NCBI GenBank assembly: GCA_000092065.1
Contig: CP000586.1
Source: Ostreococcus lucimarinus
Lineage: Eukaryota
Length of the DNA: 64,000 bases
Reading direction: 5' to 3' (one strand)
Shown in pieces: positions 23,789-62,435 of the stretch. The first letter of the stretch is position 1. Each line of letters begins with the position of its first letter. The position numbers were made by a program, and so were the translations under genes. The notes below the pieces were generated by a model that saw only the letters and a program-made list of their open reading frames with translations, ran no database searches and was not told the origin of the DNA.

Positions 23789-24182
23789 ATCTCACACAAT
23801 ACCATCTCACAATACGACAAAGCTCACGTACTCTACGCCCACGAATACCAAAGAAGCGACGACGCGCACACGGAAACGCGCGCGGCACAGGACGCGCGCG
23901 CCCGCTCGTCGCGATTGCGCCGCGCGTCGACGCGCCGTCGCGCGCGATGGCGACGCGCGCGCGCGGGAAGGTGCGCGTGCGATGCGGATAAAAATGACGC
24001 GCGTCGTCGTCGACGCGGAGGACGCGGGACGCGCGAGACGACGACGCGAGATGCGCGCGATGGCGCGATTGACGTTGAAGCGCGCGATGGCGGACGCGCG
24101 CGAGGACGGACGACGACGGACGACGATGAGCGGACGCGCGACGGACGCGCGACGGCGAGGGCGGACGATTTGATCGCGCGCG

Positions 24183-24442
24183 CGATGGCGCGTCGTCGCG
24201 TCGCGCGGCGATGGGAGGGGCGGAGGGGAGGGGTCGTCGATTCCGAGAAAGCGAAAGCTGACGCGATCGCGGGCGAACGTCTCGGAGGCGGGACTGACGC
24301 GCCGCTGCGCGCCGCGACTGCGCAGGTGAAGTGGTTCAACGCGACCAAGGGATTCGGGTTCATCATACCGCACGATGGAAGCGAAGAGATATTCGTGCAT
24401 CAAACGGGGATCTCGTGCGCGGGATTCCGGTCGGTGTGGGAG
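24183..24442 (+). CDS. Cold-shock domain protein (Y-box/CSP-like), exon 1 (5' end uncertain)
   Basis: ...QVKWFNATKGFGFIIPHDGSEEIFVHQTGISCAGFRSVWE followed by a GTGAGG donor. This is the first half of a cold-shock domain (compare Chlamydomonas NAB1 VKWFNATKGFGFI). The in-frame upstream ATG at 24183 is used. An ACTGAC...GCGCAG acceptor-like site at 24325 hints at an alternative upstream exon. Confidence 0.6.
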
Positions 24443-24570
24443 GTGAGGCTGGAGCGAAAACACCAACCGGCGCAACCGGCGCGCAGGGGCCCCTGGCGTT
24501 TCGCAATTTCGAAATGGAAATATGAACGGTGATCCCGACTGACGGTGGATGCGTTTACGCGCGCGCGCAG

Positions 24571-24750
24571 GGTGAGGAGGTTGAATACGATGTCGACGAC
24601 ACCGACTTCGCGCCCAAGGCGGTGAACGTGACTGGGCCGGATGGCGTCGCGGTGAAAGGGGCGCCGAGGCGACGGCATCGGAACCGGTTGACGAAGCAGA
24701 AGGCGAAGACCGATACCACGGAACCCACGATCGCGGAGAAAACGGATTGA
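24571..24750 (+). CDS. Cold-shock domain protein, exon 2
   Basis: After acceptor GCGCGCAG: GEEVEYDVDDTDFAPKAVNVTGPDGVAVKGAPRRR...; this completes the CSD (GEEVEF..AVNVTGPGG consensus). 128-bp intron with ACTGAC branch. Confidence 0.7.
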   Translation, partial: GEEVEYDVDDTDFAPKAVNVTGPDGVAVKGAPRRRHRNRLTKQKAKTDTTEPTIAEKTD

Positions 24751-25076
24751 GTGATCTGATCGAATCATGAAAATAGTTGTGCGCATCTCCGCGAGAGGAA
24801 ATTTGAATTGACGCATCGTGGCGACGCCCGCGGGGCGCGGCGATACCCGGCGCGTCGCCGGGCGCGCGCGCGCGTTTACGACTTCGACGAGACACCGGCT
24901 TAACCATTAGCACCACCCATGAACACCCTGGCCGTAGCGCCATTCTCGTCGTTAGCACCGCTGACGCGCTCCGTAGACGCTGCTCGGCGCATATAATAAG
25001 CAGAACACGCGTGACTCGACGACGCGATTTTCGCCTCGCGCCGACTGCGCGCGCGGAGCGAGCGGGACGCGACGTC

Positions 25077-25264
25077 ATGACACCACCACCCCAGTCTCGC
25101 GCGCGTCCCGAGCTCCCGTCGACCACACATCGGTCGATGGTAACCGACGAAGTCTTGCGCGAGTTATGCGAGCGTTTTAAGACCAACGGCTACGTCGTCG
25201 TGGAGGATTACCTCGATGATTACGTCGTACGGGCGTGTTTGAACGAATTCGAAACCGTGCTCAG
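25077..25264 (+). CDS. Phytanoyl-CoA dioxygenase (PhyH) family 2OG-Fe(II) oxygenase, exon 1
   Basis: MTPPP...MVTDEVLRELCERFKTNGYVVVEDYLDDYVVRACLNEFETVLR then donor cAG|GTGCGC (phase 2). The track start is GTG at 25011; the first ATG is at 25077. Confidence 0.6.
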
Positions 25265-25341
25265 GTGCGCCGACGCGCTGGGTCTACGACGCCGAAAACG
25301 CGTACAGCGACATCAAACTGACGCGTTCATCGCGGGCGCAG

Positions 25342-56664: not shown

Positions 56665-58158
56665 TTATTGCGCCGCGCGGCGACGACGCATATCGTTCAA
56701 CTCGCTAGCCATCAAAAACGCAAGCTCGATGGCTTGGCTCGCGTTCAAGCGCGGATCACAATGGGTGAGGTAGCGCTTTTCCAAATCAGACACCGAAACG
56801 TCCATGATGCCGCCCGTGCACTCGGTGACGTTTTGCCCCGTCATCTCTAAGTGAACCCCACCAGGATAAGTACCCATCTTTTCGTGCACTTCAAAGAATG
56901 CCATAATTTCGTCGCGCACCGCCTCGAACGGACGCGTCTTGAAACCGTTATCAGTCTTGATGGTGTTCCCGTGCATGGGATCCGTAACCCACAACACGTT
57001 GAGCCCGGCGTCTTCAATGGCGGTGATGAGACGCGGAAGATGCTCGCGCAACTTGGCAGCACCCATGCGAGAGATGAGGGTGATGCGACCCGGGACGTTG
57101 TCCGGGTTCAACTTCTTCACCAAGCTCACCACACCCTCGCCGTCGCTCTTGTCGGAAATCTTGATGCCGATCGGGTTGGAAATACCGCGGAAGTATTCCA
57201 TGTGTGCGCCTTCGGGTTGGCGCGTGCGCTCACCACACCACAAGAAATGCGCGGAACAGCCGTAATGCTCCTCGGTCGTGGAGTCCAAACGCGTGAGCGA
57301 TTCTTCATAACCCAGGTGAAGAGCTTCGTGCGCCGTGAAGAAGGATGTCTCTTGCATCGACGGATGAGTTTCGTCGATGCCGCACGCCGCCATAAAGTCA
57401 ATCGCGGCGTCGACGCGCTGCGCAAGATCCTCATATTGACTGCCTCGTTCGGTGTTTTCCATAAAATCCAAATTCCAATCGCTCACGCGCGTCATCGCGG
57501 CGTACCCTCCGTTACTGAAAGCTCGCAGCAAGTTGAGCGTGGCGCACGACTGATCGTACGCCTTGACCAAACGCGAAGGGTCCGGCCGACGCGCTTCCGG
57601 GGTGAACTCACAGCTGTTGATGTTATCGCCTCTGTACGACGGCAACGAGAGCCCATCGATCGTTTCCAAGTCTTCGGAACGGGGTTTGGCGAACTGGCCA
57701 GCCATTCGTCCCAGCTTCACCACGGGCACGCCCGAGCCGTACATCAACACGACGGACATTTGCAGCAAAACCCGGTACGTATCCCGCACGTTATCCGACG
57801 TGAAATCTCTAAAACTTTCCGCACAATCACCACCGAACAAGACGAACGCGTTACCAGCCGCCGCGTTCGCGAGCTTTTCCTGCAAGTCGCGCGCTTCTCC
57901 CGCGAACACGAGCGGCGGCCGGTTGGCGATCACCTTCAGCGCCTCCTCCAGCTCAGCCTGATTTTCATAGTTCGGTTGTTGCAGCGCCTCGCGCTGTCGC
58001 CAAGACTTCGGGTTCCACTCCTTCAAATTCGCCCCCGTCGCGCTGACGTCCGCGCTCCTCGCCTTCGACTTGCTCGCCGTCGCCTGCGCCCTGCTCGCGT
58101 CGCGCGCGCCGCGCTCCGGGTTAGTCCTCGCGTTCGTCGTCGTTCGCCCTCGTCCCAT
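56665..58158 (-). CDS. 3-deoxy-D-arabino-heptulosonate-7-phosphate (DAHP) synthase, class II (plant/plastid type)
   Basis: [19 protein letters not shown]...GDCAESF...class II AroA signature throughout; about 500 aa with presequence. Start is the internal ATG; my position reading here may be off by 1 nt. Confidence 0.85.
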
Positions 58159-58804
58159 CCGCGCGTCCCTCGCGCGCGTCGCCTCGAACGATCCACCATC
58201 CCTCCCCACCGATCCGCGCGTCTCGCGCTCGCGCGCGCGCGTCGCGCGCGTCTCGCGCCGTCGTCGCGTAACCCTCGACTCGATCGTCCGCCGTCGTCAT
58301 CCACCCGATCGCGCGCGCGCGTCGTCGTTCGCGCCGCGCCGCGCACCTCGTCACCGTCGTCACCGATCGTCGCGCGCCCGCGCGCGTCGTTCGCGCGCGC
58401 GTCGGCGTCGCCGCGCGTCGGACGCACGCCATGTCGAGCGATCGATTGTGCCGCCGCCGACGGCGCGCGCGTCCCAAGCGCGCGTGGTTCCGAATGTCCG
58501 AACTTTCCCATCGCGATCGCGTTCTGATGGCATCGCGAGGCTTACTGTACGGCACTCGCGCGTTCGACGTATTCTGTGTGCGCACTGTTTGCGCACACAG
58601 AACGGGTGGTTTTTATGCGTCGCGCATCGGTGTGGATAGAATGTCCGGTGTGAAGGTTTGAATCGCGACGCTTCGCGCGATGGATGAAACGACGCGCGAC
58701 CGCAGAGCGACGCGCGACGCGCGGCGCGACGCGGCGACGCGCGGAGCCGCGCATAAGAATTATCGTCGACCGCGGCGCGAGGCGCGAGGCGCGCGCGACG
58801 CGGG

Positions 58805-58916
58805 ATGACGACGATGGGACGGGGGATGACGACGACGTCGACGACGACGGCCGTTAACGGCGCGCGCGCGCGCGCGGGACGACGCGCGCGAGCGACGCGC
58901 GCGGTGACGTCGAGAG
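58805..58916 (+). CDS. Ycf45-like ATPase, predicted exon 1 (transit-peptide exon)
   Basis: ATG...MTTMGRGMTTTSTTTAVNGARARAGRRARATRAVTSR ends on a phase-1 donor aG|GTGCGC. A 238-bp intron with ACTGAC branch (59124-59129) and GCGCAG acceptor (59149-59154) joins in frame to exon 2. Inference only. Confidence 0.45.
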
Positions 58917-59154
58917 GTGCGCGCGACGCGGGATGACGGGGAGGGGAGGTGGACGCGACGGGCGGGGGGGGGGACGCGCGGCGCGGACGGAGGGGGGGAC
59001 GCGAGCGACGCGAGCGATGACATCGAAATCGAAACGGCACGATTTTTTTTGAAATGTCGCGGCGCGCGGCGCGACGGGTCGGTCGGACGCGTTCGGCGCG
59101 CGCGCGACGATCGGGGGAGGGTGGACTGACGTGTATTCGTTCGACGCGGCGCAG

Positions 59155-60482
59155 CGGTGGAGATCGATGACGATGGGTACGACGTCGACGATGGGATGAT
59201 TTCGAGCACGGAGTTTGAAGACGACGACGAGCAAGTCACCGTGCGAGACGACTTGACGCGTTTGTACGGCGTCTTGCCCGCGGACGTTCGGGACGCGGTG
59301 AAGAATCATCCGGAACGGAAACATCTGTTGGAGGTGGTGTTGGATCTCGGTCGAGCGCCCGAGGCGAGATTTCTGGGGGAAATTGGGTCGATGTTCCTGC
59401 GCGAGGCGCCAGTGGTGGAAGCTGAGCTCGTCGCGGCGGCGAAGGCGGTGGGGGAGTTTGGTGGGGATAACCGAGCGGGCATCGAAGGCACGTTACATCG
59501 CATTTCGTGCATTCGAAACAGGCGTGGTCACATCGTCGGCATGACGTGTCGCGTTGGACGAGCTGTGACGGGGCATATCGATATGATTCGAGATATTTTA
59601 CCGAGCGGCGAGAGCGTGTTGTTTTTGGGACGTCCGGGTGTCGGAAAGACGACGGTCATCCGCGAAATGGCGCGTGTGTTGAGCGATGAGCTCAAAAAAC
59701 GCGTGGTGATCATCGACACCAGCAACGAGATCGGCGGTGATGGCGACATCCCGCACCCCGCCATCGGGGGCGCGCGGCGAATGCAAGTTCCGGATCCGTC
59801 CATGCAACACCGCGTCATGATCGAAGCCGTGGAGAATCACATGCCCGAGGTGATCATCGTCGATGAAATCGGTACCGAAGCCGAAGCGCTGGCGTGTCGA
59901 ACGATCGCCGAGCGTGGTGTTCAGCTCATTGGTACCGCGCACGGGCAGTTGCTGGAGAACTTGATCAAGAACCCGACGCTGACCGATTTGGTCGGCGGCG
60001 TCCAGACTGTCACGCTCGGCGACGACGAAGCGCGCGCGAGAGGGTGCCAAAAGTCCATCCTCGAGCGTCAAGGTCCGCCGACGTTTCCAATTTTGATCGA
60101 AATGCACGAACGCAACATGTGGGTCGCGCACAACGTCGCTGAAAGCGTCGATGAAGTGCTCAGCGGGGCGCGACCAGTCGTGCAGCTTCGCACTCGCGAT
60201 GGCGAAGGCGAAGTGACGGTGCATCGCACCGTTTACGATATGGACGTCAGTCTTGGCACTGCGAACGTGAGCCATACGCTCGGGGCCATGGGTGGCATAA
60301 TCGCCCCCACGAGTCGTCTGAACAACCGAGCAGATAGCTCGGTCGATGACCCATATGCTTGGGCCCAAACCATCGGCAACGTTCCGGACAAGGACGCTTT
60401 GGACAACGTTTACGGAGGCACGGCGTTCAAGGAAAACAAGAAGCGCGGCAAAAAGACGCGTGCGAACGCCTCCAAGCGTTGA
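59155..60482 (+). CDS. Ycf45-like AAA/P-loop ATPase (SpoIIIAA homologue), main exon
   Basis: LLEVVLDLGRAPEARF...DNRAGIEGTLHRISCIRNRRGHIVGMTCRVGRAV...LFLGRPGVGKTTVIREMARVLS...VIIVDEIGTEAEA; the track ORF starts with GTG at 59157, and the first in-frame ATG (59196) yields an acidic N-terminus without a presequence. Confidence 0.8.
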
Positions 60483-60731
60483 TTCAGGTCAGCGCACCAC
60501 TTTCTACACTAGTACCATCAGAGTATTACCGCACATTACGCTATCATCGCCCGCGACTTACTCATTGCGGGTTTGTATCATATTCAAGATCTCGAGCCGT
60601 CGACATCGACGGCTTCCGCTGTTGTACTTGGAGGCTGTACTATCACGCGGCGCGACACATGCAATGTTATAAAATACGAGATATGTCGTTAAGTTATTAC
60701 ACGTACGAGCGGCCGCCGCTCCATTACTAAA

Positions 60732-62435
60732 TTATCCGCGACCAAACGCGCGTAAAGATTCCGTACCACCGCCGCCGCTCGCTCGAGCGGACGCGGTGAC
60801 GACGTTCTCCTCGGGCGCTGTCACGGGTACTTCTTCTTCAAGCGGAATGTACGCGGGAACTTGCACCGGGATTTTCGACCGACCAACTTTCGTCGGCGTT
60901 CGATGTCTCTGTTCCGCCGGTGTGGTGGACAGTTTCGCGCTCACCGCCGCCCAGCGCACGGCGAAGGCCGACCATCCCTTGGCGACGTGTACTCGGACGT
61001 TTTCGTAGACGCTCGTAACGATTTGACGCGTCTTTAGCGCACGATCTCCCGGTCCGACGCTCAAGGAGATCACCGCCGTAAAGCATCCGAGCTGAATAAG
61101 GCGCGCGAGCGCCCGGATGAGGTGTCTACGCTCCTTACCATCGGGGTCGATCTTGAACTCGTCTTCCTCGTCTTCATCCGAGGCGTACTCGACATTGGAA
61201 TAAATGGTGTGACGCGTGATCGCGGATCGCACCGAGCCCGCGATACTGTAGCGCTTGTGCGCGCCGTGCGCACGCTGCGTAGTCGCGCCCAGCGGCCACC
61301 GGCGATTGGAGTGAAAGGATGAAACATCGGACTTGGCGTCTGGGGAAAACGGCGCCGCGGCGACGGACGCAGGCCCTCGTCGAGGTGGCTTCGTCGGCGA
61401 GGTTATCTTGAACTCGCGGTACTCCTCGACCGTTTGCTCTGCAGTGTGCTTCCTCTTTTGTCTGAAAACCGTACGACCGACGCGATTGATGATGAAGAAC
61501 GGCGAACCTAAAGTAAAGTTCACCGTCTTCCACGCTGCGCCAAACGTATTCGCGAACAATCCCACGATTGGTGCCGCTAGCTTCTTCCCGCCTCGCGGCC
61601 CGATCGAAAGCGTCATGTCGATGCCATTTTCGTTCGCCTCCTCGTACTTCTCAACAAAATCTTCCCCGTACTCCGCACACATCATCTCGCGCGCCGTCGA
61701 CGACATCGTCACCCTCGACACCAACTCTCGATCCGCCGCTTCGATGACTTCCTCAAACGCTCGCGACTGCCTCGTCAACGCGCGTCTCGCCCGCGCTCGA
61801 AACTCCTCCTCCGCCTCCGCGCTCAATCCCGCGCTTTCCAACGCATCGTGCAACCTTCGCGCCACGAATTCATCCGAATTCCGCTCAAACGCCATGACTT
61901 TCGCCTCCACCCTCTCCACCGTCTTGCGCGCGCTATCCTCCAGCGTCCTCGCGCGCGCCCCCGCGCGTTCGCTCGCGTACGCCACCGCGCTCAGCGCTCG
62001 CTCCCCGTCCCGCCGCACCACCGATTCCGCGTGTTCAAACGATTCAAAATTCACGTAATCTTCCATCATCAGCGCTCTGCTCGCCTTACTCGTCGTCTTC
62101 GGTCGTCGTCTCGTCGCCCGATCGAGTCGCGGCGACATCACCCCCGCGCGCATCGCCCGCCAATCTCTCGCCTCTTCGTCCTCGCTCTCCCCCGTCCCGT
62201 CGCCCTCGCGCGCGATCGCCGCGTCATCGACGTTGTTTTCTTTCCCATCGTCGCTCGCGTCGTCGTCCTCGTCGTCGTCGTCGTCCTCGTCGTCGTCGGA
62301 TTCCATCCGTCGCGCGTACGCCCTCGCGAACGCGTCGAGTCGTCCGCGCTTCGCCCGCTGCGCCCGCGCCGGCGACGGGTCCTCGCCGCGCGCGTCGTCG
62401 TATCCTCGCAGCACCGCCGCCGCGACGGTCGCCAT
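60732..62435 (-). CDS. Hypothetical protein (acidic poly-D/E stretch, helical middle region, hydrophobic C-terminal region); function unknown
   Basis: Internal ATG (MATVAAAVLRGY...) chosen so as not to overlap divergent gene at 62548; contains DDDEDDDDDEDDDASDD and ...HLIRALARLIQLGCFTAVISLSVGPG... No family recognised. Confidence 0.4.
   Translation of the reverse strand: MATVAAAVLRGYDDARGEDPSPARAQRAKRGRLDAFARAYARRMESDDDEDDDDDEDDDASDDGKENNVDDAAIAREGDGTGESEDEEARDWRAMRAGVMSPRLDRATRRRPKTTSKASRALMMEDYVNFESFEHAESVVRRDGERALSAVAYASERAGARARTLEDSARKTVERVEAKVMAFERNSDEFVARRLHDALESAGLSAEAEEEFRARARRALTRQSRAFEEVIEAADRELVSRVTMSSTAREMMCAEYGEDFVEKYEEANENGIDMTLSIGPRGGKKLAAPIVGLFANTFGAAWKTVNFTLGSPFFIINRVGRTVFRQKRKHTAEQTVEEYREFKITSPTKPPRRGPASVAAAPFSPDAKSDVSSFHSNRRWPLGATTQRAHGAHKRYSIAGSVRSAITRHTIYSNVEYASDEDEEDEFKIDPDGKERRHLIRALARLIQLGCFTAVISLSVGPGDRALKTRQIVTSVYENVRVHVAKGWSAFAVRWAAVSAKLSTTPAEQRHRTPTKVGRSKIPVQVPAYIPLEEEVPVTAPEENVVTASARASGGGGTESLRAFGRG

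Follow-up and report, generated by a model that had tools for sequence, protein, structure and literature searches.

Where does the Ycf45-like P-loop ATPase of Ostreococcus lucimarinus begin, and does it carry the presequence expected of a plastid protein? The gene lies on the plus strand of a 64,000-nt stretch of contig CP000586.1 (assembly GCA_000092065.1), referred to here as the window. A mechanical listing of open reading frames (ORFs) starts the long ORF at GTG 59157, the first in-frame ATG of this part of the gene is at 59196, and the first 30 residues from the unspliced start carry a net charge of −12. A sequence-only reading had proposed that a hidden 5′ exon and a 238-nt intron lie upstream and likely supply a transit peptide. 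Both the exon and the intron are present, as ten assembled RNA contigs carry exactly the junction 58916|59155 that had been proposed. With high probability this is a nuclear gene with two exons in an O. lucimarinus-type alga, and its first exon likely encodes a plastid transit peptide.

Transcripts join a hidden first exon to the ATPase reading frame

The 90%-identity protein cluster of the ORF has a spliced member (P0131, 476 aa) that is found on 15 contigs of public assemblies, ten of which were fetched (L003–L012), and equals the predicted spliced protein from its fourth residue; it begins MGRGMTTTSTTT...TSRAVEIDDDGY, reading MGRGMTTTSTTTAVNGARARAGRRARATRAVTSRAVEIDDDGY.... The 479-aa model that starts at ATG 58805 has no exact match in the protein collection, the matching form being the 476-aa one from ATG 58814. 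A composite N-terminal query against the representatives of the 90% clusters returned only genomic read-through ORFs, the spliced forms being hidden as non-representative members.

All ten contigs align to the window in two blocks, the first ending at 58916 and the second resuming at 59153 or 59155 (a 2-nt AG fits either block), with 99.3–100% identity over exon 2, and the exact 40-nt junction sequence is found in every one. Four (L006, L009, L010 and L012) end in 23–24 A residues straight after 60692, where the genome reads G. L007 opens with the SMART template-switch oligo, GTGGTATCAACGCAGAGTACGGG, which runs directly into window position 58704; L006 opens with GGG followed by 58704, and the remaining RNA contigs start at 58443–58774. 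Because poly(A) tails and a template-switch oligo occur together with the exact junction, these contigs represent capped, spliced and polyadenylated mRNA. Metagenome DNA contigs of the same species (L001, L002 and L033–L040, several of them labelled METAG) follow the window without a break across the intron, which is kept in 12/12 metagenomic DNA copies examined. The RNA contigs are thus spliced rather than contiguous over 58917–59154, and the 5′ ends at 58704 put the transcription start site (TSS) upstream, not downstream, of 58916.

The resulting gene model begins with a 5′ untranslated region (UTR) of about 101 nt (58704–58804), with the TSS placed near 58704 by the 5′ ends of L007 and L006. 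ATG 58805 is, by inspection, the first start codon past an in-frame TAA at 58754 and also the first past the mapped TSS; two upstream ATGs, at 58680 and 58684, are out of frame and both lie upstream of the TSS. The coding part of exon 1 (58805–58916; 37 codons plus 1 nt, 112 nt in all), covered by the ten RNA contigs, encodes the presequence-like MTTMGRGMTTTSTTTAVNGARARAGRRARATRAVTSR(A). It is followed by a phase-1 spliceosomal GT–AG intron of 238 nt and 72% G+C (58917–59154), precisely missing from all ten. Joining 58916 to 59155 restores the frame to give MTTMGRGMTTTSTTTAVNGARARAGRRARATRAVTSR-A-VEIDDDGY.... The coding part of exon 2 (59155–60482, stop codon TGA at 60480–60482) comprises an acidic linker and then the Ycf45/SpoIIIAA-like ATPase, as supported by transcripts and Pfam; the transcripts are collinear with the window throughout exon 2, so that the gene has a single intron. 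The full coding sequence (58805–58916 plus 59155–60482) specifies 479 aa, and from the first AUG of the spliced mRNA the frame runs without a stop into the ATPase. A 3′ UTR of about 210 nt (60483–60692) ends at a poly(A) addition site at about 60690–60692, as marked by the four tails. The start codon, donor, acceptor and in-frame phase-1 join were all found in the sequence as the earlier reading had them.

In unspliced RNA the frame opened by AUG 58805 ends after 43 codons (stop at 58934–58936), and the intron holds two further AUG-initiated short ORFs. For these reasons splicing would be needed for efficient translation of the ATPase.

Intron signals

The intron removed is an ordinary canonical U2-type GT–AG intron. 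It opens with the 5′ splice site GTGCGC (58917–58922), just behind an AG at 58915–58916 at which the first blocks of all RNA contigs end, and closes with the 3′ splice site GCGCAG (59149–59154). A putative branch-point motif, ACTGAC (59125–59130), is placed 19 nt 5′ of the acceptor block; it matches the CTRAC branch consensus 10–40 nt 5′ of the acceptor, with a putative branch adenosine, and recurs at orthologous loci. The pairing of this motif with GCGCAG had been proposed correctly, save that the motif starts at 59125, one base past the 59124 first given. The G10 (58964–58973) and T8 (59043–59050) homopolymers both fall inside the intron, as had been predicted.

The window has four occurrences of the combination ACTGAC-N(10–30)-GCGCAG where 0.27 would be expected, and none of 100 shuffles reached four. 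The other three pairs, at 24293–25341, end apparent introns of a cold-shock-domain gene and a PhyH-like gene (23971–25341). The earlier suggestion that other introns of the window use the same donor and branch signals is upheld; the donor octamer AGGTGCGC alone (7 occurrences in the window against 3.7 expected) is not significantly enriched. The cold-shock-domain gene (23948–24750, + strand) appears to be built alike: an 8-codon first coding exon, ATGGCGACGCGCGCGCGCGGGAAG, runs into AG|GTGCGC, a 355-nt intron ends in ACTGAC...GCGCAG at 24325 and is followed by VKWFNATKGFGFI..., and a second intron ends at 24570. Its start, too, would escape mechanical ORF calling.

An introner element of the Micromonas type is not supported: comparison of the intron with the rest of the window gives only low-complexity, CG-rich matches at 61–78% identity, and the orthologous introns barely align with one another. 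An Rfam scan of 57500–61000 returned nothing meaningful (best E = 0.84).

A Ycf45/SpoIIIAA-like ATPase of cyanobacterial origin

The encoded protein matches PF19568 (Spore_III_AA) over residues 151–318 with 53.1 bits against a cut-off of 27, and PF00004 (AAA) with 25.5 bits against 21.2. It shares with Ycf45/SpoIIIAA-like ATPases of the PF19568 family a P-loop core with the Walker A motif GRPGVGKT (residues 196–203, 59628–59651) and the Walker B motif VIIVDE (residues 270–275, 59850–59867). Chlorophyte and plant homologues are 57–80% identical, several of them named 'ycf45' by NCBI, and the product of the 441-aa ORF occurs verbatim in hundreds of marine metagenome contigs. We take SPD1 to be the Arabidopsis homologue of Ycf45. 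SPD1, a member of the NTP-hydrolase superfamily, showed 60-fold enrichment when the plastidial acetyltransferase GNAT1 was pulled down (PMC11585782), and plastid development is affected in the SPD1 mutant (PMC6460958). In red-lineage algae the plastid genome carries ycf45. The family is of cyanobacterial/plastid origin; its plastid-encoded and cyanobacterial members need no presequence, whereas the Ostreococcus gene is nuclear and has an added presequence exon.

Comparison with public models and orthologues

The public O. lucimarinus CCE9901 entry for the same gene (XP_001418270.1, 'predicted protein, partial', 335 aa) is contained letter for letter in the spliced model, as residues 61–395 (window 59223–60227), and the window is thus indistinguishable from O. 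lucimarinus at this locus. Exon 1 and the intron are missing from the entry, and so are 60 residues at the N-terminus and 84 at the C-terminus. The syntenic orthologue of O. tauri (XP_022839259.1/CEF98438.1, 'P-loop containing nucleoside triphosphate hydrolase', 466 aa), with a DAHP synthase gene upstream and a DUF212 gene downstream, likewise has a short basic exon 1 and a phase-1 GT–AG intron with a GACTGAC motif just 5′ of the DDL..LP..VR block. It differs in that the exon-1 residues are unrelated, the O. tauri-like locus has an intron of 306 nt where the window has one of 238 nt, and the acidic linker of O. tauri is far shorter. Annotation of O. tauri thus already includes the equivalent exon and intron, which the partial O. 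lucimarinus model does not have. A second O. tauri strain model (OUS48364.1, 432 aa) is without that exon.

Four other Ostreococcus-type syntenic loci (L013, L021, L024 and L027) were scanned blind for in-frame combinations of donor, branch and acceptor; in these the DAHP synthase is on the opposite strand upstream, and a protein of about 570 aa and the DUF212 gene are downstream. All four have a GAG|GT[GA]CG donor, a GACTGAC 5′ of the acceptor and a candidate phase-1 join to a basic exon 1. The join is unambiguous in L013, where the predicted junction would read GTCGAGGAGGGAG|GGTCGATGGAACGC; four combinations were found in L021 and many in L024, in which the GAG|GTGCG-type donor was picked. 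For the O. tauri-like locus (L027) the blind prediction is a protein of 466 aa, MASWVGPTPMMGARVRRETFARRAWTRGTSARAWGGVRG|AGARREECECDD, with donor GAG|GTGCGAGC, GACTGAC and a 306-nt phase-1 intron, and XP_022839259.1, which reads MASSLRPTPMMGARGRRETFARRAWTRGTGARARAGVRG|AEARREECECDD, has the same length and structure. A phase-1 intron at the presequence boundary appears, from these genomic comparisons, to be conserved across the sampled Ostreococcus clades. Ten predicted spliced proteins of the other four clades gave no match in an exact look-up, in which one strain-specific residue defeats a match. In a global alignment the five orthologous introns were essentially unalignable save for their splice signals.

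In O. mediterraneus, complete ORFs from transcripts start with MMMMSTTATAPRRATVRAG..., and a Micromonas transcript ORF starts with MLTLARLLTAASGVRAERASLK...; both have a comparable extension. In these ORFs and in annotated chlorophyte and plant orthologues, 50–119 aa of basic, hydroxylated sequence stand ahead of the DDL..LP..VR block. The Micromonas orthologue (P0216 from Micromonas pusilla in MMETSP, P0222 from Logan, and locus L041) shares the DAHP synthase synteny, the presequence-like extension and GT–AG introns with CTGAC motifs, the first of which is in phase 1 as in Ostreococcus. It differs in having two 5′ introns, of 197 and 164 nt, which are placed otherwise (the extension holds one, and the other separates IIE from MLPDDV), and in an extension of about 116 aa. 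Removing the 197-nt phase-1 intron and the 164-nt intron from the Micromonas-type locus reproduces the transcript protein P0222 exactly. The comparison with Ostreococcus and Micromonas orthologues that the sequence-only reading had called for supports it, in that the O. tauri model has an equivalent exon and intron and the Micromonas transcript has the extension.

The N-terminal extension as a transit peptide

Targeting peptides are usually basic, hydroxylated extensions without sequence conservation. Of residues 1–38 of the spliced protein, 12 are Ser or Thr, 8 are Ala and 8 are Arg, and none is Asp or Glu, which gives a net charge of +8; acidic residues first appear at position 40, and residues 39–68 have a net charge of −12. 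Nine of the first 16 residues are Ser or Thr, and there is no Leu in the 38-residue presequence, whose helical hydrophobic moment is at most 0.36 (residues 22–39). In total 68 residues lie ahead of the conserved DDL..LP block, with the core starting at residue 69. The orthologous extensions, whether from predicted Ostreococcus first exons, transcripts or annotated models, have 45–119 residues at this position, and all are basic, most are rich in Ser/Thr and none of the sequence is conserved. On this composition, and with the O. tauri model and the transcripts of O. mediterraneus and Micromonas in agreement, plastid targeting by the exon-1 peptide is likely, as the earlier reading had it.

Several points weigh against this view of the N-terminus or limit it. 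The gene caller behind P0131 took the second ATG, at 58814, and the candidate starts are 58805, 58814 and 58826. Exon 1 is invariant in eight metagenome copies, which offer too little variation to test for coding selection. No spliced transcripts were found for the clades of L013, L021 and L024, so that their splices remain predictions. Finally, green-algal presequences of this basic, hydroxylated kind are similar to mitochondrial ones, and the two kinds are hard to tell apart by composition.

Alternative explanations

That last resemblance leads to a reading in which the exon and intron are as described and the N-terminal peptide is instead a mitochondrial or dual-targeting presequence. The ARAGRRARATRAVTSRAV segment is rich in Arg and Ala in the manner of such presequences and the hydrophobic moment over residues 22–39 would suit them, but that moment is modest, and the Ser/Thr-rich start and the lack of Leu point away from the mitochondrion. 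So do the cyanobacterial/plastid origin of the family, the presence of ycf45 in the plastid genomes of red-lineage algae and the association of plant SPD1 with plastid proteins. We regard a mitochondrial or dual destination as unlikely. Less likely still is that exon 1 is a mere 5′ leader or upstream ORF and the protein starts in exon 2, at GTG 59157 or ATG 59196, as an acidic and untargeted product, or that both forms are made, through retention of the intron or a start site within it. It is true that the models of prokaryote-style callers and the partial RefSeq entry begin downstream, and an AT-rich island in the intron (TTTGAAAT) could in principle be promoter-like. Scanning ribosomes should nevertheless use AUG 58805, from which the spliced frame is open into the ATPase; among the contigs examined, no RNA contig has an intron-internal 5′ end or a retained intron together with poly(A), and the transcript-based orthologous ORFs all have a presequence. 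A start in exon 2 is therefore given little credence.

The Logan contigs bear no label that separates DNA from RNA runs, and it could be argued on this account that those without 58917–59154 come from an intron-less genomic allele or strain, the window copy being translated from within exon 2. Against this stand the four non-genomic poly(A) tails of 23–24 nt, the template-switch oligo on one contig and the GGG remnant on another, the bounding of the missing stretch exactly by GT...AG and the retention of the intron in every metagenomic DNA copy. We rejected this explanation on the strength of the tails and the oligo, and it has next to no probability. Splicing of a hidden exon 1, followed by probable plastid targeting, is the reading retained below.

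The AT-rich island and a possible second isoform

The AT-rich island of the intron lies at 59035–59055, with TTTGAAAT at 59048–59055. The orthologous introns, 62–72% G+C and unalignable, yet each have a short island with TTT[GC]AAAT and/or GGAATATTT, located at 2835–2880 in L013, ~2405–2420 in L021, ~2200–2215 in L024 and ~2248–2290 in L027; an island of the TTTGAAAT type is present in four of the five introns. TTTSAAAT occurs only twice in the window, and intron 2 of the cold-shock-domain gene (~24500–24530) has a similar TTTCGAAATGGAAATATG. The island may belong to a general class of intronic or regulatory elements in Ostreococcus. A more speculative and rather improbable idea is that the intron at the presequence boundary is a relic of the recruitment of a transit-peptide exon after transfer of the gene to the nucleus, or that the island (TTTGAAAT/GGAATATTT) is a regulatory element or an internal promoter for an untargeted isoform.

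No contig supporting a second, untargeted isoform was seen among those checked, the check not being exhaustive. Short contigs with the 441-aa ORF (L001, L002, L031 and L032) were considered as intron-retaining or internally initiated mRNA and set aside, being metagenome assemblies (two METAG and two unlabelled megahit) that break at G10/T8. The JGI contig L030, also with the 441-aa ORF, starts at the equivalent of window 59153 and gives no 5′ information.

Neighbouring genes, strain variation and metagenome gene calls

A class-II DAHP synthase gene (56665–58209, − strand) stands head-to-head with the Ycf45-like gene across the intergenic region 58210–58804. The N-terminus of this synthase has a presequence-like composition, as in the Ycf45-like protein, and the divergent pair is kept in all Ostreococcus clades examined and in Micromonas. 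On the other side, the RNA contigs L003 and L004 extend to 62268 and 61705, into a convergent minus-strand gene with its stop at 60732–60734. Since only about 40 nt separate that stop from the poly(A) site at about 60692 and these two contigs run through, the 3′ UTRs of the two genes probably overlap.

The window reads ATAA at 58753–58756, which makes the in-frame TAA, and G at 58972, which completes G10. The former site is GAGG or GAGA in 8/8 environmental genomic copies and in most RNA contigs that cover it, and the latter is C in 8/8 environmental genomic copies; because these copies disagree with the window, its strain differs at these non-coding positions from what is common in the natural population.

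Among metagenome gene calls, several with longer N-termini were rejected as sources of the true one. P0007, P0152 and P0158 ('VTDEKT...') are translations of the intron, VTDEKT being GTGACTGACGAGAAGACG, the branch site; P0140 and P0141 likewise translate the intron, and the Tara record behind P0166, considered as a transcript, is a metagenome contig. The five calls that translate the intron, together with P0003 and P0168, are prokaryote-style calls on picoeukaryote contigs whose N-termini are translated intron. Versions of 547 aa and 623 aa read through the whole intron in a strain where it is free of stops, and many such calls are misnamed 'stage III sporulation protein SpoIIIAA'.

Implications

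Transcription starts near 58704, and AUG 58805 opens the 37-codon exon 1. Removal of the U2-type intron fuses this exon in frame to the long ORF called from GTG 59157, and the mRNA, polyadenylated at about 60692, encodes a 479-aa Ycf45/SpoIIIAA-like P-loop ATPase. The 38 exon-1 residues, basic, rich in Ser, Thr, Ala and Arg and free of acidic residues, would then most likely act as a cleavable chloroplast transit peptide, delivering to the plastid a protein of cyanobacterial ancestry that begins with a strongly acidic segment.

For those who annotate such genomes the locus illustrates a pitfall, in that prokaryote-style ORF calling on picoeukaryote metagenome contigs systematically either truncates the Ycf45-like protein or extends it with translated intron (as in P0007, P0140 and P0141). 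The correction itself is routine and brings no new biology, since this is a canonical intron and O. tauri already has its orthologue annotated in this way. For O. lucimarinus, it completes the gene model, taking the 335-aa RefSeq fragment to a protein of 479 aa with a targeting-type N-terminus; the predicted location of the ATPase, formerly 'unknown or cytosolic', becomes organellar and most likely the plastid.

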